From: Steroidobacteraceae bacterium
GTDB lineage: Bacteria > Pseudomonadota > Gammaproteobacteria > Steroidobacterales > Steroidobacteraceae
Reading direction: 5' to 3'
DNA: 30,235 nt
Assembly: GCA_035571175.1 (NCBI GenBank)
Contig: DATMKO010000061.1
Span: 1 to 30,235 of the forward strand
The translations under genes and the position numbers were made by a program. Positions within the stretch are counted from its first letter, which is position 1. Every line of letters starts with the position of its first letter. Shown piece by piece: positions 2,361-26,697 of this stretch. A model generated the notes under the pieces. The model searched no databases. It worked only from the letters and a program-made list of their open reading frames with translations, and was not told where the DNA came from.

Positions 2361-4252
2361 CACGGTTTGGCCTTCGGCGCATTCGATGCGCGATCATAGA
2401 TCGCGGCCAATTCGTAGCGCGCCTGGATTTGGTAGGCCTCGATGCGCTGTTTTTGACCTTCGAGCTCCTGTATGGCGAGCACTTGCAGGAATCGGTTCTG
2501 CCTCTCCGACACATCGGCCAGGCGCTGCTGCAGATCATCGATGCGGCCGCGTACATCCGAGACACGCGATCCGTACTCGCCGGTGGTCAGCGGCGTACCC
2601 TCGCGAGCCTGCTTGACCAGCACGGCGCGCTTTTGCGTCTCCTTGAGTATGCCCTCGAGTTCCTTGACCGAGCGCCGTTCATTCCACACCCTCGCTTTGA
2701 AGCTCTCCGACAGGCGCCAGTACATGACTCCCTTCATCAGGCGATGCTTTTCGCGCATCTCCGTCAACTCCGGATCGTCCGGGTGCGCCGCGAGATAATC
2801 CTCGATGCGCTTCAATCGCGCCCAGGTTTGCTGCTCCTCGGGCGTGCCCAAAGCCGCCACGTCATTGGATTTCTCGATGTCGTTGATGCGCGATTCGAAA
2901 TCCACGCGTTGCCGGGTCAAGCCGTCGAGATCGGTGGCGCCCAAGACCGCGTCAGCCTTCGGAACGCGTTGCGTATAGGCCGCCTGGCGGGTATCCAGCA
3001 TGTCGTGAAAGGCTGCGATGTCATCGTGCCAGGCGTCCAGATTGCGGCTCATGAAATTGAGTTCGCGATAATTCTTCAAGCCCTCCTGAAATTCATTGCT
3101 CGCCAGGAGTGCGTACAGGTAGCGCGACTCGGGAGCATCGGGCACGCTGGTCAGCTGCCAGTACCAGGTCAGCGTGTCCTTCTTGTCGTCGTTCAGCAGG
3201 CGGTCGAGCATCTTGCCGCTGCGAATCTGTTCGATTGAGTCGTCAATCAGCTTCAATTCGGAATCGAAGGATGCAATCGCCGACTCGTAGCCTTCGGCGG
3301 CCTGCCCGGTGGCGGACAATTGCAAATATGCATAGGGCACGGTGAGAAAGGACTCTTGAACCGCCGAGTCCAGCAAGCTGCGCTTGCGCAATGCAACCCA
3401 TGGCACCAGCGCGCGCTTGAATTCGCCCATGCCGGCGTCCGCCCAGCCGACTCCGAGCAGCGCCTTGCTTGAGTACGGGCCTTCGAGCCGGATTCGCTGC
3501 AGGATGGGCCTGGCTTCAGCCGCCCGCTGCGCCTGCAGCAGCGCAAACCCGAGGGCGAGATTTGCCTTGTCCTTCAGCGCCAACAATTCCGGGCTGCGCG
3601 TCTGCATGGTGCCGACCCGATCAAGATACCTGGCGGCGTCGGCAAGCCGCTCCTTGCGCACCAAAGCTATCCCTAAGTTGAACTGTGCATACGCGGTCCA
3701 GTCCGGCGCACCGTGCCAATTGCTCAAGGCGGCAATCGCCTCGTCATAGCGCCCCTGCTTCATCATCAATTGCGCGATCAGCATGTAACGTTCGGCGTTG
3801 ATGCGCGGATCCATCTTGTCTGAGACCTGCCGCAGCGCGCGCTCCGATTCCTCCAGGTAGCCGCGCTGATACCAGACTTTTCCCAAATAAAACCACGCCC
3901 GGTTGCGCACCGCTTCGGAGGTGTTTTGTTTGAGCAAGGCCTCGAAGATCCTGCCGGCCTCCACGTGCTGGCCCAGCGACAGGTACAAACCACCGAGCAG
4001 CAATTCCGCTTCGCCTTCGGTGTGCGGAATCCGGTTCTGTTCGCGCGCCGCGAGCAGACGGGTAATCGAATCGAAATAATCATCCTGAAAGAAATAAAAC
4101 AGCACATCGCCGTATTGCAGATCCTGCACCACATGCGGCGGCAAACCGTTGGGATCCGGCTTGACGTTTTTCGCCGGCGCGGACGCCAGCGGCAGCGCCA
4201 GCAGCAGCCCGCCGAGGATCAGCGGCCGACGTCTATTAATAACGCGCTGCAC
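2360..4252 (-). CDS. Exported TPR protein with C-terminal coiled-coil region (630 aa)
   Basis: GTG start and signal peptide (RRRPLILGGLLLALPLASAPA). TPR-like repeats (AELLLGGLYLSLG, AWFYLGKVWYQRG, AQFNLGIALV, ANLALGFALL, ALLGVGWA). Helical coiled-coil C-terminal half. Coupled to the neighbouring genes. Confidence 0.88.
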   Translation of the reverse strand: MQRVINRRRPLILGGLLLALPLASAPAKNVKPDPNGLPPHVVQDLQYGDVLFYFFQDDYFDSITRLLAAREQNRIPHTEGEAELLLGGLYLSLGQHVEAGRIFEALLKQNTSEAVRNRAWFYLGKVWYQRGYLEESERALRQVSDKMDPRINAERYMLIAQLMMKQGRYDEAIAALSNWHGAPDWTAYAQFNLGIALVRKERLADAARYLDRVGTMQTRSPELLALKDKANLALGFALLQAQRAAEARPILQRIRLEGPYSSKALLGVGWADAGMGEFKRALVPWVALRKRSLLDSAVQESFLTVPYAYLQLSATGQAAEGYESAIASFDSELKLIDDSIEQIRSGKMLDRLLNDDKKDTLTWYWQLTSVPDAPESRYLYALLASNEFQEGLKNYRELNFMSRNLDAWHDDIAAFHDMLDTRQAAYTQRVPKADAVLGATDLDGLTRQRVDFESRINDIEKSNDVAALGTPEEQQTWARLKRIEDYLAAHPDDPELTEMREKHRLMKGVMYWRLSESFKARVWNERRSVKELEGILKETQKRAVLVKQAREGTPLTTGEYGSRVSDVRGRIDDLQQRLADVSERQNRFLQVLAIQELEGQKQRIEAYQIQARYELAAIYDRASNAPKAKP

Positions 4253-4255
4253 GCA

Positions 4256-4933
4256 TCATTCCCAGTCTTTGATCATGAACTCAGGTTGATGCTTGGGAAC
4301 ACGGTCGGTGATCTTCAGCTCCAGATACTTTGCACCGACGCCCTTGTCGAAACTGATGGTGGCGCCGCGCTTGTAGGCGCGCTCCACCGGACCCTTGCCG
4401 GTAAAAAACGCCACCAGTTCATGTTTGCCGACCTTCAAATTGCCCAAATAAATCTGCTGCACTCCGCCCTTGAGCAGTGCATCGGCTTCGCGCGCGGTGT
4501 ACAGATAATTCTTCACTTCCTTGTTGTCGATCTTGACGGTCACCGAATCCAGCGCGAAGAACGTGCCTACGTCCATCGATATGTAGAGCGCGACCTGGGT
4601 ATTGGCGGGAAACAGCAGTTCTTCTTGCAGAACGAACAGGTCCTTGTTGAGGTCAATGACGTCCTTTTTCAGACTCTGCACTTCCTGATCCAGGGTCTTG
4701 AGTTCGGCCGGCGGCGCATCCGGGGCTGCGGCAGCTGCCGGCGGCGCGGAATCGCTCCCCGGCGTTGGGGCGGCAGCGGCCGGATTTTGCTCGCTCGGCG
4801 CAGCTGCCGGCGGCGTTGCCGGAGCCGCAGCTGCGGGGGCCGCCGCGTTCGCCGCCGACGCGCCTGCGGCCATCCACGCCGCCGACAGCACGCCGAAAAC
4901 CATGATCGACACAACCCGGACTTTAAGATTCAT
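4256..4933 (-). CDS. Secreted protein: signal peptide, Ala/Pro-rich linker, coiled coil and beta-rich C-terminal domain (225 aa)
   Basis: Signal peptide, AAAPAAAAPATPP low-complexity linker, coiled coil LDQEVQSLKKDVIDLNKDLFVLQEELL, then a beta-rich domain. No helix-turn-helix is visible. From memory, homologues are often labelled 'AraC family regulator', which the sequence does not support. Confidence 0.8.
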   Translation of the reverse strand: MNLKVRVVSIMVFGVLSAAWMAAGASAANAAAPAAAAPATPPAAAPSEQNPAAAAPTPGSDSAPPAAAAAPDAPPAELKTLDQEVQSLKKDVIDLNKDLFVLQEELLFPANTQVALYISMDVGTFFALDSVTVKIDNKEVKNYLYTAREADALLKGGVQQIYLGNLKVGKHELVAFFTGKGPVERAYKRGATISFDKGVGAKYLELKITDRVPKHQPEFMIKDWE

Positions 4934-4947
4934 AACTGGCCTATCGT

Positions 4948-5451
4948 TTACTCGCGCAGCAATTCGCGAATTTGATCAAGAAAAATGCGCTCATCACCGC
5001 GCTTGAAGCCGACAATCGAATAGCGCACCACGCCGGCGCGATCCACCAGGATCGTCATGGGCATTTTTTGCAGCAAGTAGTCTTTGCCGATTTCTGATCC
5101 GGTATCGAACAGGATCGGATATGACACTCCCATCGCGACCGCGAACTCCTGCGCACGGCGCAGATCCTCGTCGACCGACACGCCGATCACCACGAGTCCG
5201 GCGCGCTGGTAGGTGGTGTTGATGCGGTCGAGCGCCGACATCTCCTGCCGCGAATCGCCCGCCCAGCGCGCCCAAAAATTAACCAGAACCACCTGGCCGC
5301 GATACTCGGACAAGCGCAAATTTCTGCCATCCAGTCCACGCAGCACAAAATCCGGCGCCTCCTTGCCCACCATGGTCGGCGCGGCCGCAAGCGAGGAGCC
5401 GGCCATTGCGGCGCCGAGGATCAGGCAGCCGAGGAAGAATGCTCTACGCAT
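4948..5451 (-). CDS. TlpA/ResA-like thioredoxin-fold protein lacking both active-site cysteines (AGDS in place of CxxC)
   Basis: APDFVLRGLDG..LRLSEYRGQVVLVNFWARWAGDSRQEM..MPMTILVDRAGVVRY is a typical TlpA scaffold. Codons at 5251-5262 read GCG GGC GAT TCG (A-G-D-S). The only Cys lies in the signal peptide. Confidence 0.88.
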   Translation of the reverse strand: MRRAFFLGCLILGAAMAGSSLAAAPTMVGKEAPDFVLRGLDGRNLRLSEYRGQVVLVNFWARWAGDSRQEMSALDRINTTYQRAGLVVIGVSVDEDLRRAQEFAVAMGVSYPILFDTGSEIGKDYLLQKMPMTILVDRAGVVRYSIVGFKRGDERIFLDQIRELLRE

Positions 5452-5499
5452 GCGGTGCTAAATTCAAGCTGACGCCGAAGCGCCGCGATTCATCAATCA

Positions 5500-5585
5500 C
5501 GCTGGTAACCCCGCTGTCCTAGGAACACCCCGTAGACCGGAAGCTTTGCGCCCTCGCCTTTCAGCGAGTTTGCCCTGATCAGACC
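5500..5585 (-). ncRNA. c-di-GMP-I (GEMM) riboswitch
   Basis: The minus strand reads GGUCUGAUCAGGGCAAACUCGCU-GAAA-GGCGAGGGCGCAAAGCUUCCGGUCUACGGGGUGUUCCUAGGACAGCGGGGUUACCAGCG. It aligns by eye to the V. cholerae Vc2 aptamer: P2 stem CUCGCU/GGCGAG with GAAA tetraloop, GCGCAAAG junction and AGCGGGGUUACC 3' end. Ligand-contact equivalents G20 (5574), A47 (5547) and C92 (5505) and the C44-G83 pair are conserved. P1 can form G14-C93, U13-A94 and C12-G95. It lies about 50 nt upstream of ATG 5451. Confidence 0.95.
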
Positions 5586-5591
5586 TTATGC

Positions 5592-5621
5592 AAAATCGCA
5601 CAATGCGAGCCGCAGTGTCAA
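5592..5621 (-). promoter_or_regulatory. Candidate sigma70-type promoter for the riboswitch-led transcript
   Basis: Perfect TTGACA at 5621-5616. A 17-18 nt spacer gives only a weak -10 (CGATTT/GATTTT). The implied start at about 5586 would sit just 5' of the aptamer. Confidence 0.4.
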
Positions 5622-5785
5622 CGCAGCGGCAGCGGCTTCACTGGATTTCTGTATGACTTGGCGCACATTCATGGAATTTCATTGCGATGCTGCTCTCGTG
5701 ACATGCCACGCACCGCTCGAGGCGCACAATGCAAGCGGCTTGCTACCCCGCATCACTGCTCGATGTGTTGTCTCTGGATTGAGAC

Positions 5786-5810
5786 AGACCTGCGCGGAAA
5801 GCGCAGGTCT
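5786..5810. repeat. Perfect inverted repeat, 10-bp stem
   Basis: AGACCTGCGC-GGAAA-GCGCAGGTCT, read directly from the sequence. Confidence 0.8.
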
Positions 5811-5844
5811 AAAAGCCAAGGGTCCGACGTCAGCCGGACCCTTG
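5811..5844 (-). terminator. Probable intrinsic terminator downstream of the DUF1501-like gene
   Basis: The minus strand reads CAAGGGTCCG-(8 nt)-CGGACCCTTG followed by GCTTTT, starting about 18 nt after the TAG at 5862. The U-tract is short. Confidence 0.6.
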
Positions 5845-5861
5845 TGTTGCAGATCACATTC

Positions 5862-7481
5862 CTAGGCAACTAATCCATTGACGAGACCGGCCAGCGGTTG
5901 CCATGCAACCAGCGGTTCGAGCGCGGTGCCGCTGCCCAGGGTGTTGTTCAAGTTCGGCGCGGGCCACAGTGTCGGCCACGCGGATATCGCGTTGGCACTG
6001 TGCAGCGCCATGTAGTTGAGCACCACCATCTGCACCAGGTTGGGTACGTTGTTGCCGGCGGGGCTGCCGGTGGTGTTCTGCGAACCGTCGGGATTGAAGT
6101 TGCCGATCTGCAAACTCATTTCCGGATTGGATTGCGCGGACACCGCCCTTCCCGCGGGATTGAAGACCAGGAAATAGGTCGCCGCGACGCTTTGGTTGTC
6201 GGCCGTCCAGACGCCCTTGCCGCGCCCGCCAACGGAGTTGTCGATCATGCCGTTGCTGGCGAGCGAGCCGTCGCTGAATACATAGATCATCACCGGTTTG
6301 CCCACGCGGTTGGCATATTCCAGAACCGCGCCGATGCAATTGCCCAGGTTCAAATCCTTGGCCTCACCGTCCATGCGGTTGCCGCTGTGATAGTCGAAGC
6401 CGCCCATTTCGATGGTGCCGGCGGCGGCATTGCCGTCGATCACGAGTTTCATGACTGCCGCGGTCGCTTGATAGGACGAGTTGGCCTGGTATTCGGCCGT
6501 TTGGAAGATGCCGCTGGCGCCCACGATGTTCGGATCCACGTCGGGATTCACGGCGGACGGACTGTTGTACTTGTCGACGATGTAGGCCGACTTCGTATAG
6601 CCGCAGGCCTCGATTCCGGCCGACCCGATTGCTGCGGTATTCAATGCCGCATTATTCGGATACGCCGTCACCACGCCGTACTTGGCATCGCTGATGCGCT
6701 TCATGGACTCCAGCACATTGGTGACGTCGGAAGAATTGGGCAGCAGCGTGCTCAACTGTCCGGTGCTGACCAAACCCTTGCTGTCCTGCGAACTGGAGAT
6801 TTTGGTCGGCGTCGCCGACGGGATGACCATGGTGGGCGGTGACATGGAGTTGCCACCCGACATGGAACTATCCGTGCCGATGAGATTCAGCAGGCCGCCG
6901 CGCGCGCCCGCTTGATAGATGCCGTACATCGGGTTGTGCGGATTGGTATTGGTATCGTTTTGCGACAGCGCAGGAATGATCGTGCCGGTCGTGCCCGCCA
7001 TGGCCGCGGCGCTGGCCCGCAGCTTCATGCCGCGCAAATGCGCGCTGTCCGAGTGATAGCGCAAGCCGAAGCTCGCGTCGACGAAACTACCCGAGGCGCT
7101 GGCATTCGGCACCATGGTTCCGGGCAGTCCCAGTTTGCTGTAGCCTGCGACCGAGAGGAAATCCAGCTGCCCGGCAGGACCGCCGACCAGCACATTGGAT
7201 CCGGCGATATTGCCGCCGCCGGCGAGGTCGAAGCAGATGAACGGGATCTTGCCGGCGCCGGTGGTGATGTTGCAGGCGGTTACCGCGGCCTGGATATCCG
7301 CAGCGAGCGTCGCGCGAGCAGATCGCGGGTAGGCCAGCATACCGGCCAGCGTCGGTGCGACCACCGTCGCCGCGCCGGTGATGAAGCCCTGCGCGAGGAA
7401 CTCGCGGCGCGTGCGTGGCCGTGGGTGATCCTGGTGACGGAACGGCCCGTTGGTACCCGCCGTAACTGATTTCTTGCTCAT
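5862..7481 (-). CDS. Tat-exported DUF1501-like protein of unknown function (539 aa)
   Basis: Twin-arginine motif RTRREFLAQG with a signal ending SARA. The motifs PFICFDLAGG, IEMGGFDYH and VMIYVFSDG resemble the DUF1501 motifs (xFLxGG, GGWDTH, vvxsEFGR). A purine-rich SD (GGAAGAGG) precedes ATG 7481. Confidence 0.65.
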   Translation of the reverse strand: MSKKSVTAGTNGPFRHQDHPRPRTRREFLAQGFITGAATVVAPTLAGMLAYPRSARATLAADIQAAVTACNITTGAGKIPFICFDLAGGGNIAGSNVLVGGPAGQLDFLSVAGYSKLGLPGTMVPNASASGSFVDASFGLRYHSDSAHLRGMKLRASAAAMAGTTGTIIPALSQNDTNTNPHNPMYGIYQAGARGGLLNLIGTDSSMSGGNSMSPPTMVIPSATPTKISSSQDSKGLVSTGQLSTLLPNSSDVTNVLESMKRISDAKYGVVTAYPNNAALNTAAIGSAGIEACGYTKSAYIVDKYNSPSAVNPDVDPNIVGASGIFQTAEYQANSSYQATAAVMKLVIDGNAAAGTIEMGGFDYHSGNRMDGEAKDLNLGNCIGAVLEYANRVGKPVMIYVFSDGSLASNGMIDNSVGGRGKGVWTADNQSVAATYFLVFNPAGRAVSAQSNPEMSLQIGNFNPDGSQNTTGSPAGNNVPNLVQMVVLNYMALHSANAISAWPTLWPAPNLNNTLGSGTALEPLVAWQPLAGLVNGLVA

Positions 7482-7506
7482 AAGTTTAAGACCTCTTCCG
7501 TCTTGC

Positions 7507-10032
7507 TTAGTAGATCAACATGTCGGCGCTGCCGAAGGCCGTCGCGCAGGCCGCGGCGGTGACCGCCTGTACCCGTGCGGTGGTCGTGCAAGCGGTGCTG
7601 CTGCAAAGATTGGTTATCAACTTGTCGAGCTCGCCGCTGGCTCCTGTCATGGTCGAGGCCGCCGGCTGGCTTTGCAGACCGCTGCCGAGCACCTTGGCCG
7701 CGAGCGGGCCGGTGACCGAGTCGATACCGGCCTGCGTCCCGAACAATCCAGCACTCAAGGTCACGCCCGGGAACATGGCCGAAACCAATGCCGGGTTGTT
7801 GACCATTTCATTGCAGTACTGGATGGCGATCTGCGCGATGCCGACCTGTTGCGCCGAGGAGAAGCTCTCCAGCGTCGGAATCGCCGGCAGCTGCTGCTGT
7901 ACGGCCTGATATGTCGCGACCACGTTCGGATCCGAAGTCGCCACGCCCGTGAGCGCCGACAGCGTCGAATTGACCGATGCAAAGGTCTTGATGCCGATAT
8001 CGGCGACCACCGGACCCGGCGAGGGCGCCGGCGCGGTCGGCGTCGGCTCGACCACCACATCGGTCTGGCTGCCCAGCACGTCGAAGGTAAGGAAGAACTG
8101 GTCGCTGGCAGGCCCGCTCTGCAGCGCAATCACGGTGCCGATGGGCGACAGCACCTCGCCCGTTGGCGTGTAGTTGGCCGCAGTCACGGTGGTATTCAGC
8201 GGTATGTAGGCCTGGCCCACTGACGGGATCGTGCCGTTCAAGCCGATGCGTATGCCCTGCACCGGAATGCTGGGCAGGTTGGCCGAGGTAACCGTCGGAT
8301 CCAGCGAGATGAAAGTCGGCTGGTAGAACAGGTAGCTGTAGCTGTCGTACTGGCTGACCGTGAACATCACATAGGACTGCGACACGTTGGTGACGCTCGC
8401 CACATTGAACAGCATGTAGTAGCGCTCGCCAACGCCCGCGTTGAAGTTCTGCATCACCTGCGCAGCCGACATGGCGCGGCTATGGATGGCGACGAACTTG
8501 ATGAGTCCCGTCCAGGACCGATCGCCGGACACGCCATTGCCGAGCACCAGCGCGAAGGTGCTGTCCCAGTTGGAGATGGTGCCGCCCTTCTGTGCATCAG
8601 CCGGACCGACGTTCACGCCGTTGACGTAGATCATGCGGCCGTTGACCGGATCGTACGTCAGCACCACGTGCTGCAAAGACGCCTGCAAAGCCATGGCAGC
8701 ATTCGGAGTCTGCAGCTGCGGCATGCCGGTCAGCGCCGTTGTCGAGGCGCGCATCAGGAAGTCATAGTCCTGATTGGTTTGACCCAGCGTGAAGTTACGC
8801 GTGGTGTCACCGCCCTCATAACTGACCATGTAGGAATTGTCGACCGCCACCACCGCGGGCGCCACCCAGGCCTCGACCGAGAACTCGCCCGTCGCCTGGA
8901 TGAGATTGTAAAGCTTCGAGCTCGAGGCGGTCGTGGCCTGCGCCTTGCCGCCGCTGCCGACATTGATACCCCAACCGCCGGCCAGGGTGACGTTGCCCGA
9001 GATCGTGAGATCCGCAGACGGGTCGATGCCGCTGGTGTCGAACGTGGTGTTGTTGACGATCGACTGGAACTCGTACTTGGCGATCGTGTCGGCATCGTAG
9101 CGGCTCGCGCCGCTGGCGATGGTGCCCTGCGTGAGCGTTATCGCCTTGCTGACGACCAGATTAGGATCGATGTTGGACGGGGTCAGCATTTGCGCGAATG
9201 CCTGAATCTGCGCCAGCATCTGCGCTGCATCGGAAGCGCAGTTGTCCCAACAGTTGTGGTTGTCGGTAAGCAGCCGCTGATACAGGCGTGAATTCACGCC
9301 GCACGACAAGGGAGTCGTGGTGCCGTTGCTGTTGCCGGCGACGAACGGACTGCAGCCGGTGAAGTCGATTTTCGGAATCGCTGCCGGATAAGCAATCAAC
9401 AGATTGGGATCGGCGTGATACGGCTGCTGCTCCACGGAAGGATCGGCCGTCGTCGAATGGCAGCGCACACAGTACTTGCTGGTCAGCGTGTACACCGTGT
9501 TCTGGTAGTCGGTGTAGGACGCCGGGAAGTTCAGGCTCTGTCCGACGGTTTGCACCGGCGGCGCCACCAATTGCACCGTGGTTGAGGAGGTGGCTCCCGT
9601 GGCATTGGCCCAGTTGGTGATCCAAGTGGTCAAAATCTGGCCGCAGGCGTTAGGGTCGGCGAGCCAGCAGTTGTGACCGCCGCTCACCTTGATAACCATG
9701 GTTGACTGCGAGGGTTGCGCCAGGTTGACGACGGTGTTGGCCTGCACGTAGGCGAGATTCACATCGTCGCTGCGCGCAAAATTCGGCATCTGCGCCGGGG
9801 TGGTGGCGTTGTGGCACTGTCCGCAGCGGTTTTGCACGCGGATGTTGTTCCACAGATTGATTTCGAACGCCTGGACGTCCGCCGTCGCCGGCGCAGGCCC
9901 CGTGTAGGTGCTCGCCGTTGCCGTCTGCGAGGGCGCAACGTTGGCCACGGTTGGAGCGCCGGCGCCGCCGCAAGCGCTTAAGGCGAATGACGCTGCGAGA
10001 GCGATCAAGCCGGTAATGCGTGTAGCGTTCAT
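7507..10032 (-). CDS. Lipoprotein with two c-type heme domains and a LamG/concanavalin-A-like domain (about 841 aa)
   Basis: Lipobox LSA-C. CxxCH motifs CGQCH (9811-9825) and CVRCH (9457-9471), each followed downstream by HNCW...C. LamG_3 signatures GEFSVEAWV, LQHVVLTYD..MIYVNG and WTGLIKFVAIHSRAMS. The start was moved from TTG 10038 to ATG 10032, which follows a GGGGA SD. Confidence 0.85.
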   Translation of the reverse strand: MNATRITGLIALAASFALSACGGAGAPTVANVAPSQTATASTYTGPAPATADVQAFEINLWNNIRVQNRCGQCHNATTPAQMPNFARSDDVNLAYVQANTVVNLAQPSQSTMVIKVSGGHNCWLADPNACGQILTTWITNWANATGATSSTTVQLVAPPVQTVGQSLNFPASYTDYQNTVYTLTSKYCVRCHSTTADPSVEQQPYHADPNLLIAYPAAIPKIDFTGCSPFVAGNSNGTTTPLSCGVNSRLYQRLLTDNHNCWDNCASDAAQMLAQIQAFAQMLTPSNIDPNLVVSKAITLTQGTIASGASRYDADTIAKYEFQSIVNNTTFDTSGIDPSADLTISGNVTLAGGWGINVGSGGKAQATTASSSKLYNLIQATGEFSVEAWVAPAVVAVDNSYMVSYEGGDTTRNFTLGQTNQDYDFLMRASTTALTGMPQLQTPNAAMALQASLQHVVLTYDPVNGRMIYVNGVNVGPADAQKGGTISNWDSTFALVLGNGVSGDRSWTGLIKFVAIHSRAMSAAQVMQNFNAGVGERYYMLFNVASVTNVSQSYVMFTVSQYDSYSYLFYQPTFISLDPTVTSANLPSIPVQGIRIGLNGTIPSVGQAYIPLNTTVTAANYTPTGEVLSPIGTVIALQSGPASDQFFLTFDVLGSQTDVVVEPTPTAPAPSPGPVVADIGIKTFASVNSTLSALTGVATSDPNVVATYQAVQQQLPAIPTLESFSSAQQVGIAQIAIQYCNEMVNNPALVSAMFPGVTLSAGLFGTQAGIDSVTGPLAAKVLGSGLQSQPAASTMTGASGELDKLITNLCSSTACTTTARVQAVTAAACATAFGSADMLIY

Positions 10033-20046: not shown

Positions 20047-20619
20047 ATGCAAGTCCCTGCCAATTTCACGCAGCTATTGACCGAGTGGCGCGCGGGTCAT
20101 CCGCAAGCGCTGGACCGTTTGACGCCTTTGGTATACGACGAACTTCGCCGCTTGGCGCACGGTTACATGCGCGCGGAGCGCGGCAGCCATACGCTGCAGG
20201 CCACCGCGGTAGTGCATGAAGCGTTTCTCAGATTGATCCAGGCGAATGTGGCGCTGGAGGATCGCGATCACTTTCTCGCCCTGGCTTCGCGCCTCATGCG
20301 CCGCGTGCTGGTCGATCATGCCAAGTCGCGTGCGCGGCTGAAGCGCAATGCCGGCATCAGGGGAACTCTCAGCGGCGAAGAAATGGGCAACAATTCGCCG
20401 TCGCTCGACGTCGACGTGATCGCCCTTGATGATGCGCTGGAGAATCTGCTGCAGCTGGAGCCGCGCCTGGCTCAGGTAATCGAGTTGTATTATTTCGGCG
20501 GAATGACATACGACGAAATTGCCGCCGCAACGGGCACCTCATCCGCCACCGTGCATCGGGATATCCGCCTGTCCCGCGCCTGGTTGCTCAATGAAATCGG
20601 CGGCACCCGATCGACATGA
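20047..20619 (+). CDS. ECF sigma factor, TIGR02999/ECF43-like kinase-associated group (190 aa)
   Basis: TQLLTEWRAG..ALDRLTPLVYDELRRLA..HTLQATAVVHEAFLRL..MRRVLVDHA, and region 4 ELYYFGGMTYDEIA..TVHRDIRLSRAWL. It overlaps the kinase start by 4 nt (ATGA). Confidence 0.92.
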   Translation: MQVPANFTQLLTEWRAGHPQALDRLTPLVYDELRRLAHGYMRAERGSHTLQATAVVHEAFLRLIQANVALEDRDHFLALASRLMRRVLVDHAKSRARLKRNAGIRGTLSGEEMGNNSPSLDVDVIALDDALENLLQLEPRLAQVIELYYFGGMTYDEIAAATGTSSATVHRDIRLSRAWLLNEIGGTRST

Positions 20620-23321
20620 TTCCGCGCGCTCGCTGGCAGCAGATTCAGACCTTGTTCGACCAGTTGGCTGATGTCGAGATCGCCGAACGCGCCGCACAAT
20701 TGGAAAAGAGCTGCGGTGACGACACCGAACTGCGCCTGTCGGTGACCTCCCTCCTCGATCTTGATCGGCGGCGCGAGGACCCGCTTCTGGATGCCATCGG
20801 CACGGCCGCCGAGTCATTATTGGAAGATCACCGCGATCGCTTGATTGGTACGCGCGTGGGTCCGTACCGGGTGGTATCGATTCTCGGCCATGGCGGTATG
20901 AGCACGGTGTATCGCGGCGAGCGCGACGACTCGCAATACCAGCAAACCGTGGCGATCAAGGTACTGCAGCATGCCGCATTGCATCCGCGGCTGCGCAGCA
21001 GGTTGCACAGCGAAAGGCATATCCTCGCGACGCTCGATCATACTTCCATCGCGCGCCTGATCGACAGCGGCGATCTGGAGGACGGCACCCCCTACCTGGT
21101 GATGGAACACGTCGACGGCGAATCCATCGACAGCTATTGCGACAGCCGCACCTTGTTCGTTCGCGAGCGCATCGAATTGTTCATCGCGGTATGCGCTGCG
21201 GTGCACTATGCGCACCGCAACCTGGTGGTACATCGGGATATCAAGGCGTCGAACATCTTCGTCACCCACGACGGTACGCCAAAGCTGCTGGATTTCGGTA
21301 TTGCCAAGTTGCTCGCGCCGGAAAGTCTGTCGCACACGCTTCCGGTGACGCGTCTGCAGGAACGGATCCTCACGCCGGAGAACGCCGCGCCGGAACAGGT
21401 TCTCGGGCGGCCCATTACCACCGCGACCGACATTTACGCGCTCGGCGTGCTGCTGTACCAGCTGTTGACGGGCCGATCCCCATATCGGCTGCTCAGCTAC
21501 AGCCAGCTGCAACTGGAGCGGGCCATCTGCATGGACGATCCGGTGCGCCCGAGTCAAATGGTCGTTTCCAAGCTGAAAGGCGAAACCGACGCGGACCGCA
21601 GCCGCATTTCCGATCGCCGCGGCCTCTCTCCGCAGCGCTTGCGTGCCCGTCTGAGCGGCGACCTGGATGCCATCGTCGCCATGGCGATGCGCAAGGAACC
21701 GGATCGGCGCTACCCATCCGTCGAAGCCTTCGCCGACGATCTGCAAAGACACCTGCTGGGACAGCCGGTGCGCGCGCGCCAGGGCGATTGGCGCTACAAC
21801 TCCGCCAAGTTCCTGCGGCGCAATGTATTCGCAGTCCTCGGAGCGGCGGCGGTATTCGTGGGGTTGGTCGTGATCGCAGGCATGACCCTCTGGCAGAATC
21901 ACCGCATCGGAATTGCGCGCGACGCCACCGCCCAAGAACGCGACCGCGCACAGCAGGTATCCGCGTTTCTGGTCGACGTGTTCTCGCAAGCCGATCCTTT
22001 CAATGCCCAAGGCCGGGAAATCACCGCCAAAGACTTGCTGGATCGAGGCGCAGAGAAGATCACCGGCAATGCGAATCTACAGCCTGAAGTGCGCGCGCAG
22101 CTGCTGGAGAGCATCGGTCTTGCGTACCGGCGCCAGGGATTGAACGAGCGCGCCATACCCTTGTTCGAACAAGCGGTTGCCATCCGGCGCGAGGAGCAGC
22201 CGCTCGATAATCGCACTCTCGCCGCAGCTTTGGCCAATTTGGCCCAGGCGTTGACCGGTGCGGGGCATTTGGTGAGCGCCGATGCCTACATGCAGCAAGC
22301 GGTCGCCCTGTCGCAAAGCAGCGATGCGCCGCCATCGGCGGAAACCGCCGACATTCTGGTGCAGTACGGGCATTTTGCTCAAAACGCCAAGAGTGACCCG
22401 GAACTGGCCACCAAGCAGTTTACCGACGCGCTCGCCATCTACCGCAATCTTCCCGGCGATCAGCATTTGTCGATTGCCTCAACCTTGAGTGCTCTTGCCG
22501 GCGCAGCGATTTGGTCGGGCGACTATGTGCATGGCGAGCAGTATCAACGCGAGGCGCTCAACCTGTTTCGCGCCACGGTCAGCCGCAATTATCCCGATCA
22601 CGCCGTGGCGCTGGCGGGCTTGGGCAACATTCTCACCCAGCGCGGCAAGTATGCCGAAGCCGATCAGACCCTCAACGAGGCCTTGGAGATAGAGCGCAAC
22701 GTTTTTGGCCCGGACAATCAGCGGATCGCATCGATCGAGGCCGATCTTGGCGCTTTGTATCAGCGCGAAGGGGACCCGCTTCGCGCCATGGCCTCGACGC
22801 AGGACGCCTTGAGGATCACTACGAGCCGCTTGGGCCCCAATCACTACATGACCGGATACTATCTGGATGCGGTCGCCGACCTTGATCTCAAGAACAATCA
22901 TCTGGACGACGCCGAATCTCATGCGCGGCAAGCGCTCGCCGTATACGCGCAGTCGCTGCCTGCGCGGCATTTATTTGTAGCCGCGACGCGACAGCTGCTC
23001 GGAGAAGTACTTCTGCGCCGCGGCCAACTTGCGCAAGCCGAAGCGGAGGTTCGCGCCGCGCTGGATATCGACCTTGCATTGGCGGGACCCGGAAATTGGC
23101 GCACTGCTCGCACCGAGGCGAGCCTGGGCTGGATCTTGATCGCGGAAGACAAGGCAGCGGAGGGCGAGCCTTTGCTGCTCGAGGCGCAGAAAAAACTCTT
23201 GGCGATGTTGGGCCCGCAGCATCCCGAAACCGCGCAGGCAACCTCGCGCCTCAGCGATTACTACCACGCGCATCACCGCGACGCCGACGCCGCGCAACTT
23301 CATGCGGCCGACAAACACTAG
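20616..23321 (+). CDS. Membrane Ser/Thr protein kinase with C-terminal extracytoplasmic TPR domain (901 aa)
   Basis: Hanks motifs LGHGGMSTVY, VAIK, HRDIKASN, DFGIAK, APEQ and TDIYALG. One TM helix (VLGAAAVFVGLVVIAGMTLW) is followed by roughly 450 aa of TPR repeats. Confidence 0.93.
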   Translation: MIPRARWQQIQTLFDQLADVEIAERAAQLEKSCGDDTELRLSVTSLLDLDRRREDPLLDAIGTAAESLLEDHRDRLIGTRVGPYRVVSILGHGGMSTVYRGERDDSQYQQTVAIKVLQHAALHPRLRSRLHSERHILATLDHTSIARLIDSGDLEDGTPYLVMEHVDGESIDSYCDSRTLFVRERIELFIAVCAAVHYAHRNLVVHRDIKASNIFVTHDGTPKLLDFGIAKLLAPESLSHTLPVTRLQERILTPENAAPEQVLGRPITTATDIYALGVLLYQLLTGRSPYRLLSYSQLQLERAICMDDPVRPSQMVVSKLKGETDADRSRISDRRGLSPQRLRARLSGDLDAIVAMAMRKEPDRRYPSVEAFADDLQRHLLGQPVRARQGDWRYNSAKFLRRNVFAVLGAAAVFVGLVVIAGMTLWQNHRIGIARDATAQERDRAQQVSAFLVDVFSQADPFNAQGREITAKDLLDRGAEKITGNANLQPEVRAQLLESIGLAYRRQGLNERAIPLFEQAVAIRREEQPLDNRTLAAALANLAQALTGAGHLVSADAYMQQAVALSQSSDAPPSAETADILVQYGHFAQNAKSDPELATKQFTDALAIYRNLPGDQHLSIASTLSALAGAAIWSGDYVHGEQYQREALNLFRATVSRNYPDHAVALAGLGNILTQRGKYAEADQTLNEALEIERNVFGPDNQRIASIEADLGALYQREGDPLRAMASTQDALRITTSRLGPNHYMTGYYLDAVADLDLKNNHLDDAESHARQALAVYAQSLPARHLFVAATRQLLGEVLLRRGQLAQAEAEVRAALDIDLALAGPGNWRTARTEASLGWILIAEDKAAEGEPLLLEAQKKLLAMLGPQHPETAQATSRLSDYYHAHHRDADAAQLHAADKH

Positions 23322-24211: not shown

Positions 24212-25131
24212 ATTTCGCACGACTCGTCAACCACAGAGCCGCGCTCAGGGCAGGCTTGCTGCTCGCCTCCCTGACGCTTTTTTCCGTGCTCGCAGCAGCA
24301 CGGGCGCCACTGGTGATATTGACGGATTTTGGGACTCAGGACGGCGCGGTCTCGGCCATGAAGGGCGTCGCGTACAGCGTCTCGCAGGATTTGCTGATAT
24401 CCGACCTGAGTCACGAAAATCCGAGCATATTCGACGGCGCCTACCGGCTGTTTCAAACCGAACAGTTTTGGCCCGAGGGCACGGTGTTCGTCGCGGTGGT
24501 GGATCCCGGGGTGGGTACCAAGCGCTTGTCAGTGGTGTTGAAAACCCGCACCAACCGCTACTTCGTCGGCCCGGACAACGGTCTGTTGTCGTTGGTCGCA
24601 GAGCGTGATGGGATCGAAGGGCTGCGGCAAATCGATGAAGGCGTCAATCGACGGCCGGGATCCGATGATTCCCACACATTTCACGGCCGCGACGTTTTCG
24701 CCTATACCGGCGCGCGTCTCGCCGCCGGCGTGATCAGCTTCGAACAAGTGGGACCGGCGTTGCCGCCGCAGTCCCTCATCAGTATTGCCTACCGCAAACC
24801 CGTGCGCACCGGATCCGACGTATCCGGGATCATTCCGGTGCTGGACGTGCAATTCGGCAATGTATGGACCAATATCCCGAAGTCGTTGTTCGACGAGTTG
24901 CATGTGGCGCTGGGCACTTCGCTGCATGTTCGCATTTTCCACGATGGCAAACTGGTCGATGAAACTCGCGCCCCCTATCAGCGCACGTTCGGCGAAGTGG
25001 CGGTGGGCAAGCCCTTGGTGTACATCAATAGTCTTCTGAACGTGGCCGTGGCGCTCAATCAGCAAAACTATGCCGCAGCCCACAAAGTAGAATCCGGACC
25101 GGACTGGACCATCGAGATCGGCAAGAACTGA
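24208..25131 (+). CDS. DUF62 SAM hydroxide adenosyltransferase (SAM hydrolase) family protein with N-terminal signal peptide (307 aa)
   Basis: LTDFG, VVDPGVGTKR, GPDNGLL, TFHGRDVFA and FGNVWTNI. The Asp-Arg-His triad of the hydrolase branch appears intact. There is a 33-aa hydrophobic N-terminal extension. The GTG start overlaps the SYLF stop. Confidence 0.88.
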   Translation: MNFARLVNHRAALRAGLLLASLTLFSVLAAARAPLVILTDFGTQDGAVSAMKGVAYSVSQDLLISDLSHENPSIFDGAYRLFQTEQFWPEGTVFVAVVDPGVGTKRLSVVLKTRTNRYFVGPDNGLLSLVAERDGIEGLRQIDEGVNRRPGSDDSHTFHGRDVFAYTGARLAAGVISFEQVGPALPPQSLISIAYRKPVRTGSDVSGIIPVLDVQFGNVWTNIPKSLFDELHVALGTSLHVRIFHDGKLVDETRAPYQRTFGEVAVGKPLVYINSLLNVAVALNQQNYAAAHKVESGPDWTIEIGKN

Positions 25132-25144
25132 GAATCGACACGGG

Positions 25145-25615
25145 ATGAACCAACAACGCCGTCCGATGTTTCGCAGCAGCGGACAAAACGGCTTCTCGGC
25201 TGAAGTGAGCAACCACCCGCGGCATGTGAAGGCACGCAAACTGGAACGCGAGGTGGAGGTTCGCTTCACTCCCGTTGACTGTATCGTTCGCACGCCGGAG
25301 GGCATCGTGCATGCGCATGCCGGAGACGCGATATTAACGGGCAACGGCGGCCAGCATTGGCGCGTGTCGCGCGCGAAATTCGCGAATAAGTACCGTCCGG
25401 TACCGCCAATCGCCACGGGCGAGTCGGGGCATTATATGAGCCGGCCGTACCAGATCCTGGCGTTGCAATCGCAGGAGCCATTCGCCGTGTTGCTCGCAGA
25501 TGGGATATCGGAGCTTGCCGGCCACCCCGGCGATTGGCTGGTCGATTATGGCGATGGCAGTCTGGGTATAGTCGCGGAAAACGTTTTCGCAACCACCTAC
25601 GAGATCCTGAGCTAG
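25145..25615 (+). CDS. PGDYG-family protein with two internal repeats (156 aa)
   Basis: Duplicated motif: TPEG..AHAGDAILTG..W.VSRAKFANKY and LADG..AGHPGDWLVDYG..IVAENVFATTY. Confidence 0.7.
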   Translation: MNQQRRPMFRSSGQNGFSAEVSNHPRHVKARKLEREVEVRFTPVDCIVRTPEGIVHAHAGDAILTGNGGQHWRVSRAKFANKYRPVPPIATGESGHYMSRPYQILALQSQEPFAVLLADGISELAGHPGDWLVDYGDGSLGIVAENVFATTYEILS

Positions 25616-25621
25616 GCCGCA

Positions 25622-26659
25622 ATGCCGCTGCATCAGACAATTCAACGCGTGCTGCTGATCGGCGTGCGATTGAAGTATCCGCCGCCCGCGCCGACGCCCA
25701 TTCCGCCTGCGCGACTGCTGCCGTTCATTGACGCCATCGCTCCTGAACACCAAATGTTCGATGAGCGCGCCGTGCTGTTTGGTCACCGCTACCGCAGCGG
25801 TTTCTGGGCCATTTATCTGTTGAGCGCCATCGCGGTACTGTTCGCCGTCCTGCCGCTTGCGCTTGGCTGGGATGATCGCCGCCACGTATTGCACCCGTAT
25901 CTTGGCCTGTGGGCAGTTGCGGAGGTCGGCATTATAGGCACGGTGAGCGCCATCTATTGGCTGGGTCACAGGCACGACTGGCAGGGGCAATGGCTGCGCG
26001 CCCGCACGACCGCCGAATTGACCTGGTATCTGCCGCTGATCGCACCGCTGCTCGACTTTACACGGCGCGAAACCACGTTGAACTGGTACGAGAGGGTTTT
26101 CGATCCCGGCCAGCATCTGCGCAGCGGCGATGATGTGGCGGCGATTTGTTCGAAGCATGAACCCTTGGTGCGAACACTGCTCGAGCGGGCCTGGTCGGAC
26201 CCGCAGTTCATATCGGGCTACGCGCTCTGGACGGTGGGCATTCTCGAGGGGCAGACGCATTACCATCATCGCGTTGCCATTAAACAGCACGCGCTGTTGC
26301 ATCGCGTCCATGCCGTGAACAGCGGATTATTCGGGCTGACCGCGCTCGGGGCGCTGCTGCATCTTGCGATGCACACCTTCTGGTTATCGATAATCACCAC
26401 TTTTTTCCCGGCGCTCGGTGCCTCCCTGCATGGCGCACTCGCGCAGTCCGAGGCCTATCGACTGGAAGCGACCTCCGCGAGGCTTGCGGTCGATCTGCAG
26501 CGCGCCGTCGGCCGCATTCGTTCGACACTCGACCCGCAAGACCCGCTGCGCAGTGCCGAGGCGATCAAGGAGTCGATCCAGGCAGCCATCGAGTTGATCC
26601 TGGAGGAGCACCAAGATTGGCACATGCTGGTGCGGCCTCATCATCTGCCGCTGGCGTGA
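25622..26659 (+). CDS. 4-TM membrane protein with two SLATT/DUF4231-like 2TM effector modules (345 aa)
   Basis: TM pair 1 is followed by WQGQWLRARTTAEL. TM pair 2 (GLFGLTALGALLHL, WLSIITTFFPALGA) is followed by EAYRL..S. The C-terminus contains LILEEHQDW. This resembles the tandem-SLATT tail of SLOG-SLATT proteins. Confidence 0.62.
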   Translation: MPLHQTIQRVLLIGVRLKYPPPAPTPIPPARLLPFIDAIAPEHQMFDERAVLFGHRYRSGFWAIYLLSAIAVLFAVLPLALGWDDRRHVLHPYLGLWAVAEVGIIGTVSAIYWLGHRHDWQGQWLRARTTAELTWYLPLIAPLLDFTRRETTLNWYERVFDPGQHLRSGDDVAAICSKHEPLVRTLLERAWSDPQFISGYALWTVGILEGQTHYHHRVAIKQHALLHRVHAVNSGLFGLTALGALLHLAMHTFWLSIITTFFPALGASLHGALAQSEAYRLEATSARLAVDLQRAVGRIRSTLDPQDPLRSAEAIKESIQAAIELILEEHQDWHMLVRPHHLPLA

Positions 26660-26697
26660 GACGTCGCTTGCCATCCGACTCAAAACCGGGATATCCG

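Follow-up and report, generated by a model that had tools for sequence, protein, structure and literature searches.

The DNA analysed here, hereafter the window, is a stretch of 30,235 nucleotides (contig DATMKO010000061.1 of assembly GCA_035571175.1) from a soil metagenome-assembled genome of Steroidobacteraceae (3.04 Mb, 76% complete). It holds two adjacent genes, one encoding a small soluble protein of the PGDYG family and the other a membrane protein with four transmembrane (TM) helices, hereafter the 4-TM protein, whose predicted hairpins are related to the SLATT membrane effectors of bacterial conflict systems. The open reading frames (ORFs) and the features that can be recognized within them are as follows.

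25145..25615, + strand: PGDYG gene, an ORF of 156 aa encoding a soluble protein with no signal peptide
25226..25399, + strand: PGDYG repeat 1, about residues 28-85, with the pattern EG-V..GDAILTG..G..W.VS...F...Y (alignments A3/A5)
25427..25606, + strand: PGDYG repeat 2, about residues 95-154, where the name-giving GDWLVDYGDGSLG motif is found
25616..25621, + strand: 6-nt spacer between the PGDYG and 4-TM ORFs
25622..26659, + strand: 4-TM gene, an ORF of 345 aa encoding a putative tandem SLATT-type protein
25754..26071, + strand: module 1 of the 4-TM protein, about residues 45-150 (TM1 57-85, TM2 93-114), DUF4231/SLATT-like
26246..26620, + strand: module 2 of the 4-TM protein, residues 209-333 (TM3 231-253, TM4 255-273), SLATT_1-like

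Both ORFs lie in one reading frame, with their starts 477 nt apart and only a TAG stop and two codons between them. A single substitution or a stop read-through would convert the window pair into a fusion protein like the natural ones of other lineages.

The first protein matches the Pfam family PF14083 with 85.7 bits for a cut-off of 27 (residues 57-152, profile positions 5-101 of 102) and is also recovered by the search for this family in its own genome. Its internal duplication is apparent from profile-profile comparison, residues 26-88 aligning with residues 93-156 (hhalign 94%, E 9e-8). The AlphaFold2 (AF2) model (pLDDT 93.5, pTM 0.86) is all-beta and made of two similar beta4-alpha-beta units. 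Relatives of PGDYG number more than 3,700; the depth of the alignment is limited to 37 rows, the homologue search having listed close relatives only. Against solved structures, the sequence profile returns nothing and Foldseek finds nothing significant (best E 0.05, TM-score at most 0.25). No connection to known sponges, Tad1 and Tad2 among them, was demonstrable, and tblastn against 50,697 phage records gives no match. At the level of the fold, the double PGDYG arrangement is found in five uncharacterised phage or giant-virus proteins of the BFVD database (E 6e-9 to 8e-6, TM-score 0.59-0.74), and the phage “PGDYG proteins” of this database match one repeat only. The double fold is also seen inside DHH/DHHA1 phosphoesterases and RyR, TPR-S and patatin proteins, among atlas look-alikes that carry no statistics and are leads only. 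Such a distribution, read from models, suggests a portable regulatory or ligand-binding module, of which it is an expected trait and not a proof.

PGDYG genes can also stand alone, with no SLATT neighbour, as in the Ralstonia locus L033 and 132 other Ralstonia megaplasmid records and in locus L014 of genome G295. On the megaplasmids of Ralstonia solanacearum, the solitary gene is conserved and lies near a HipA toxin-antitoxin pair; in G295, it adjoins the gene of a glycine-zipper lipoprotein.

Hydropathy reveals four hydrophobic helices in the second protein (57-85, 93-114, 231-253 and 255-273), arranged as 2+2. According to the positive-inside rule, its N-terminal tail, the 115-residue linker between the hairpins and the C-terminal 70 residues are predicted to be cytoplasmic. 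Alignment columns are invariant in the helix that follows TM2 in module 1 (W120..W124...R128..AE132); module 2 includes a Q211..YH215 helix before TM3 and C-terminal helices that extend to W333. On the window protein, Pfam SLATT_1 (PF18181) scores 19 bits vs 26.3 (E 0.0015, residues 209-333) and NCBIfam SLATT_1 (NF033634) 29.8 bits vs 41 (E 4.7e-7, two stretches; residues 209/211-333). A search of 1.84 billion representatives yields 617 relatives of the 4-TM protein, and its relatives number more than 1,300. Alignment A1 gathers 26 full-length stand-alone 4-TM relatives, of which 14 match SLATT_1 (best E 2.5e-8) and 14 match DUF4231 (PF14015), the latter on module 1; matches to SLATT_3 (four relatives) and SLATT_4 (three relatives) are also found. 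For example, the relative P0341 reaches 52 bits with NCBIfam SLATT_1 (cut-off 41) and 26 bits with DUF4231 (cut-off 24.7), and P0314 scores 41.0 with the same SLATT_1 model for its cut-off of 41. This model falls on module 1 or on module 2 depending on the relative (on module 1 in P0305, P0319 and P0341), and DUF4231 is a family which we take to be a member of the SLATT clan. The two modules have no detectable likeness to each other (hhalign 0.8%), so that the term “tandem SLATT” rests on each module's own matches and not on a detectable duplication. Homology at the family level supports the assignment of the window protein as a putative tandem SLATT-type protein, in which a DUF4231-like hairpin is followed by a SLATT_1-like one.

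A large class of relatives, about 570-700 aa long, carries the whole 4-TM module at its C-terminus. Alignment A1 and this class are homologous over 311 columns (hhalign 100%, E 7e-71), which cover residues 3-345 of the window protein. The head of the long class, about 290-300 aa, has no match in Pfam, NCBIfam or PADLOC and matches weakly, in a Protein Data Bank (PDB) sequence profile search, a nucleoside 2-deoxyribosyltransferase (E 0.01). In the AF2 model of P0314, which belongs to this class (pLDDT 89, pTM 0.90), the same series of elements is seen twice in the membrane part: an entry helix of about 50 residues, a hairpin, a return TM helix and cytoplasmic helices. The best Foldseek matches of the head are YpsA (2nx2, E 4e-5, TMt 0.65), DprA, ShosA and the LOG-like TM1055; as modelled, this head is a SLOG fold. 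Because the homology to the long class is full-length and the modelled head of this class is a SLOG fold, the window protein corresponds to the membrane part of a classical SLOG-SLATT protein, the SLOG head being absent. SLOG-SLATT architectures were reportedly predicted by Burroughs et al. in 2015 (cited in PMC9226505). The SLOG-headed relatives adjoin genes encoding TIR, TIR-NACHT, DUF4062-NACHT, RyR, Apyc1-like metallo-beta-lactamase (MBL), WYL, IS110 and MazE-PIN proteins.

At two loci (L034 and L035), a SLOG-2xSLATT gene is flanked by genes of RyR proteins (a TrkA_N-RyR protein and a 94-aa RyR protein), in addition to TIR and NACHT. The association with RyR recurs among the atlas look-alikes of PGDYG.

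The original prediction had described two ORFs separated by 6 nt, a soluble protein with two PGDYG repeats and a protein with four TM helices, all of which agree with the coordinates, the PF14083 score and repeat alignment, and the hydropathy given above. The two SLATT-like modules that it had recognized hold at the family level, owing to the matches of the relatives; in the window protein itself they score below the curated cut-offs and are unlike each other.

Pairing of the two genes and operons of their relatives

Among 185,579 species genomes, the 4-TM gene lies directly 3' of the PGDYG gene in 77 of 80 independent PGDYG loci, an adjacency far above chance. Within the family, it does so in all ten complete loci. 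Furthermore, the two proteins occur as natural single-chain fusions (P0242, P0243, P0247 and P0313), and at loci L019 and L099 PGDYG-4TM is a single ORF of 520 and 510 aa, respectively. The adjacency and the natural fusions support the view that PGDYG and the 4-TM protein form a conserved functional unit. Three loci (L083, L089 and L108) keep PGDYG with no remnant of the 4-TM gene, and one genome (G074, 96% complete) has an intact and conserved 4-TM gene with no PGDYG anywhere, which is a single case.

The ORFs that follow PGDYG in L083 and L089 (cluster C39) were considered as possible partners and rejected: they are Arg-rich, with no TM helix and no Pfam match, and are probably spurious, the 4-TM gene being absent from these loci. 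In another genome of the family (G101:C1:387339-388352), the 4-TM gene is broken by several TGA stops and is either a pseudogene or an assembly error.

The genes found upstream of the pair in relatives are informative about its possible role. In 35 of 90 loci, a gene encoding an nSTAND1 NTPase (about 1,080-1,160 aa) precedes the pair on the same strand. In 18 of the 62 loci with clustered neighbours, a gene encoding a 461-aa SIR2_2+TIR_2 protein is located upstream of nSTAND1. The order of the four genes is SIR2-TIR, nSTAND1, PGDYG and 4-TM, with 4-nt stop/start overlaps. For example, the four genes of L114 occupy positions 1341-2726, 2723-5995, 5992-6459 and 6467-7522. At L103, the four-gene array is extended by genes for a Tll0287-HAMP protein and for one more TIR protein.

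A Tll0287-like+HAMP gene followed by a gene encoding a TIR protein of about 250 aa is a recurrent pair, which at L103 (7490-9126) prolongs the four-gene operon, again through overlaps of 4 nt. In the genome from which the window comes (L122, contig C432), this Tll0287-like+HAMP/TIR pair stands alone.

A different arrangement is found on plasmid p1 of Caballeronia sp. Lep1P3 (L032, NZ_CP084267.1 337238-342421), where five co-directional genes encode, in order, a TIR protein, an RT0821-Lpp0805 glycine-zipper protein, a trypsin-like protease, a SLOG-2xSLATT protein (649 aa, annotated DUF4231) and PGDYG. The order of the membrane protein and PGDYG is thus reversed, PGDYG being 3' of its partner. 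Since SLOG and PGDYG are both present in Caballeronia, PGDYG is an addition to SLOG and not a simple replacement for it. Among all the operon partners, PADLOC recognises the TIR domain alone. Because relatives of the pair are operonic with SIR2-TIR and nSTAND1, and because the homologous membrane module is fused to SLOG in the midst of TIR, NACHT and RyR genes, the placement of the pair among nucleotide-signal conflict systems is supported.

History and genomic setting of the window copy

The surroundings of the window pair are of another kind. The flanking genes encode, according to Pfam, an extracytoplasmic function (ECF) sigma factor, a Ser/Thr kinase-TPR protein, Ysc84, SAM_HAT and S9 and S10 peptidases; the housekeeping-type character that had been attributed to them is thus correct for the window. 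No TIR, SLOG or SMODS gene is linked to the pair within the 30-kb window. In the rest of the 76%-complete genome, two TIR_2 genes are located on other contigs, and the search detected no nSTAND1 above the cut-off, no SMODS and no match to the SLOG head (A2 profile). The lack of the usual SLOG or SMODS partner, which had been predicted, is therefore seen in the window and extends to what is available of the genome.

All the PADLOC matches in the window come from one protein and concern the kinase models PD-T4-6 and mad6 (E to 8e-64). This protein is probably the Ser/Thr kinase encoded at 20616-23321, the likeness being at the level of the domain only, and beyond such kinase-domain-level matches PADLOC finds no other known defence family in the window. 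Among the relatives of the window proteins, a single PADLOC match is obtained, as “2TM effector”, for P0332.

In the region 20047-23321 of the window, the gene of the ECF sigma factor (Sigma70_ECF, E 1e-45) and the gene encoding the 901-aa Ser/Thr kinase-TPR protein share 4 nt, at the start of the latter. The immediate flanks of the pair (25131-25145 and 26659-26695) vary in content from locus to locus. About half of the syntenic loci have SAM_HAT, and in relatives (L029 and L030) the 4-TM gene and the S9 peptidase gene are separated by a methyltransferase gene (about 235-250 aa) that the window lacks.

The synteny of the window is common to about 32 loci at an identity of at least 70% and is absent around the pair in more distant relatives. 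When 96 4-TM sequences are placed in a maximum-likelihood tree with the SLOG class as its root, the loci with the window synteny form one clade (33 rows, SH-aLRT 100) that is nested among STAND-linked lineages. The most parsimonious reading of this tree, which does not prove it, is that the orphan state is derived and that the pair is a detached half of the four-gene SIR2-TIR/nSTAND1 operon.

Five near-complete genomes of this clade (G420-G424; loci L037, L040, L046, L055 and L060) were searched for the missing half. Each of them has one PGDYG gene, and nSTAND1 is found in only one, G421. In this genome, an orthologous SIR2-TIR gene (82% identity) and nSTAND1 (60%) are located on another contig than the pair; the four-gene system of G421 is split into two halves. 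An “effector swap” in G421 was also considered and rejected, the 253-aa multi-TM ORF that follows nSTAND1 being CrcB-like by motif, with an over-called start, and unrelated to the 4-TM family. The five genomes carry 5-17 TIR_2 genes each, mostly ORFs of 450-870 aa, which is a striking expansion.

The ratio of nonsynonymous to synonymous substitution rates (dN/dS) of the pair ranges from 0.06 to 0.16, like that of its neighbours (0.06-0.15 for PGDYG and 0.10-0.16 for the 4-TM gene), with values of 0.06 and 0.10, respectively, in the comparison that is least saturated. Both genes are under purifying selection and the cassette is probably still functional. The 4-TM gene is patchy in the family, being found in 14 of 95 high-quality genomes and in 12 of 40 genera.

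Proposed role and alternatives

The reading that is favoured here, with moderate confidence, is that the window pair comes from a TIR/STAND (Thoeris-like) conflict system, of which it is an orphaned membrane-effector cassette that still functions. In the four-gene relatives, nSTAND1 would be the invader sensor or a switch, and SIR2-TIR, as in Thoeris, would either use up NAD+ or turn it into a messenger. Through PGDYG, this product, or else the complex, would then act on the 4-TM protein. PGDYG would be a cytoplasmic partner devoted to the 4-TM protein, and its most likely function is that of a regulatory or sensor subunit linking the upstream signal to the opening of the SLATT. Once activated, the double SLATT would assemble into oligomers that breach the inner membrane or dissipate its potential, and the cell would stop growing or undergo abortive infection. 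The genes, their pairing and fusions, the homologies, the operon contexts, the tree and the purifying selection are observed; that a pore forms, that PGDYG binds a ligand, what the signal is and whether the pair confers defence are what we infer in this scheme. In the ancestor of one Steroidobacteraceae clade, the cassette would have moved to a new chromosomal site and lost its linkage to the sensor, and it would have been kept intact by selection thereafter, the window pair retaining the last two steps of the scheme. With this linkage lost, the window copy would need a trigger supplied in trans, one possible source being the unlinked TIR proteins that these genomes encode.

The candidate conflict module of the original prediction is thus retained in so far as relatives of the pair are operonic with SIR2-TIR and nSTAND1, and modified in that the pair would be a detached half of a four-gene operon and not a self-contained system. 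The SLATT homology and the conservation of the pair, on which that prediction leaned, are both found (14 of 26 relatives and 77 of 80 loci). Its proposal that PGDYG is the ligand or phage sensor is not established, PDB sequence and fold searches being empty, and the PADLOC check that it had suggested for both proteins returned no match.

Several points weigh against the favoured reading. The window 4-TM protein scores below the curated SLATT cut-offs, and the PDB sequence-profile and fold searches detect no relative of PGDYG with known ligand binding. PADLOC v2.0.0 (2023) matches neither the PGDYG nor the 4-TM protein of the window, and nSTAND1 is also unmatched. The window copy lies outside any defence island; the pair is co-directional with ordinary genes, SAM_HAT being 13 nt away, and a scan for promoters and terminators around it gives no signal above shuffled expectation. 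Defence genes are not usually as vertically stable as this pair, which is maintained over about 33 species-level genomes, and PGDYG is solitary on the Ralstonia megaplasmids and in G295. The deep nodes and the root of the 4-TM tree are weak (68-85). Finally, the SLATT of type VII Thoeris is thought to bind cyclic ADP-ribose (cADPR) itself, so that a separate sensor is not required, and E. coli gained no protection from “SLOG and 4TM” candidates (10.64898/2025.12.03.692087).

Some of these points could be explained otherwise. It is unlikely, in our opinion, that the pair has no conflict role in this clade and is a domesticated, regulated channel or stress device responding to an endogenous small molecule, maybe as a part of an envelope-signalling neighbourhood (ECF sigma, Ser/Thr kinase-TPR, Ysc84). 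The fixed locus with a synteny conserved in about 33 species-level genomes, the purifying selection equal to that of the neighbours, the co-direction with upstream genes with no own promoter detected, the lack of a defence island in the window and the failure to find nSTAND1 in four of the five clade genomes would all fit such a device. However, all that is known of these protein families points to conflict systems, and the distribution of the 4-TM gene in the family is patchy. Nor do the flanks behave as a fixed operon, SAM_HAT being missing in about half of the loci and a methyltransferase gene being variably inserted downstream. Furthermore, Ysc84 and SAM_HAT appear, from a reading of their sequences, to bear N-terminal signal peptides, whereas PGDYG is cytoplasmic.

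The frequent adjacency of the two genes also recalls toxin-antitoxin systems. The 4-TM SLATT would be a membrane toxin that the upstream PGDYG, as antitoxin, holds closed; the loss or titration of PGDYG, for instance on a shut-off of host synthesis, would free the toxin. This would account for a small soluble gene immediately 5' of a membrane effector, the two being tightly coupled and strictly inherited together, and for the loci L083, L089 and L108, which keep PGDYG after the loss of the 4-TM gene as expected of an antitoxin that is harmless alone. Such a role seems nonetheless rather improbable. The toxin of a type II system should not persist without its antitoxin, but G074 has the 4-TM gene with no PGDYG (a single case), and the two proteins can be covalently fused in nature. 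The gene order is reversed in Caballeronia, the SLATTs of the SLOG class and of type VII Thoeris occur with no PGDYG, and the PGDYG fold is found, among leads only, joined to many unrelated enzymes in the manner of a regulatory domain.

It is improbable that PGDYG is instead a protein-protein adaptor linking an activated nSTAND1 oligomer to the SLATT and not a small-molecule sensor, the orphan being inert or repurposed: the recruitment of effectors through adaptor domains is common in STAND systems (PMC8195603), but no PGDYG-like domain is detected in the nSTAND1 protein (Pfam: nSTAND1 and AAA_16 only) that could form a homotypic pair, the orphan pair is under strong purifying selection without nSTAND1, and the PGDYG of Caballeronia is found with TIR and SLOG-SLATT and with no STAND protein.

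The favoured reading of an orphaned effector cassette can be carried further, to a version that must be regarded as doubtful. The cassette would be a shared “hub” effector and PGDYG a new family of receptors for a diffusible NAD-derived (cADPR-type) messenger, so that one pore would answer many unlinked TIRs (5-17 per genome) and the phage double-PGDYG proteins would be sponges. If true, this would be a trans-wired Thoeris-like network instead of self-contained operons.

Significance and comparison with known systems

No mention of PGDYG was found in the searchable literature, nor in the text or searched supplements of the preprint on Thoeris (10.64898/2025.12.03.692087). What is new here is the orphan and vertically stable state, the split system of G421, the SLOG head of the long relatives, as modelled, the homology between the stand-alone and the SLOG-fused membrane modules, and the selection data. 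Few predicted membrane effectors of bacterial immunity are as common as SLATTs (CBASS, type VII Thoeris, DRT10, RADAR). A double SLATT paired, and sometimes fused, with a small beta protein that is confidently folded would provide a tractable two-protein system for the study of SLATT gating, and would reveal what the PGDYG domain, also frequent in phages, does. An orphan state under selection also raises the question of whether signalling-type immune effectors can respond, in trans, to signal producers encoded elsewhere. Should this be the case, such effectors would escape operon-based catalogues of defence systems.

SLATT effectors of CBASS, DRT10/UG17 and RADAR belong to the same superfamily as the window protein, with the same presumed role of membrane effector or accessory toxin. 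In DRT10, the SLATT is an essential effector whose activation mechanism is described as open (10.64898/2026.04.29.721553). Unlike the window protein, these effectors are single 2-TM units of other subfamilies (SLATT_5 for DRT10), triggered by cyclic oligonucleotides or complementary DNA (cDNA), with no PGDYG partner.

The combination of a TIR protein (ThsB) and a SLATT (ThsH) defines type VII Thoeris, whose TIR produces canonical cADPR when the cell is infected (Yirmiya et al., bioRxiv 10.64898/2025.12.03.692087). Cells that carry this system are arrested by cADPR supplied in the medium (10.64898/2025.12.03.692087). The relatives of the window pair resemble it by the genetic coupling of a SLATT-type effector to a TIR protein and by a predicted logic in which an NAD-derived signal would lead to the oligomerisation of a membrane effector. 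However, the effector is here a putative tandem 4-TM protein (DUF4231-like and SLATT_1-like) instead of a single SLATT, and it comes with a PGDYG protein (77 of 80 loci). The TIR of the relatives is fused to SIR2, is accompanied by an nSTAND1 NTPase and is encoded two genes upstream of the pair. In the window, where type VII Thoeris would have an adjacent TIR gene (ThsB), the 30 kb hold none.

In the SLOG-fused tandem SLATTs, which are the “SLOG and 4TM” proteins regarded as putative Thoeris effectors, the whole membrane module is homologous to the window protein. Both have a two-hairpin layout with long entry helices, and TIR and STAND neighbours are found in both cases. The window protein differs by the lack of the SLOG head, in place of which it has only a 45-residue N-terminal tail, and by the separate PGDYG gene.

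Another close system is the SIR2-TIR/nSTAND1/PGDYG/tandem-SLATT operon of Steroidobacteraceae. In the window clade, the sensor and TIR genes either lie apart from the pair (G421) or were not detected, and only the last two genes of the operon are kept together, at another locus. These two genes are orthologous to those of the operon (55-70% identity) and keep the same adjacency. The window pair is a SLATT effector with an undescribed partner, and not a new category of system.

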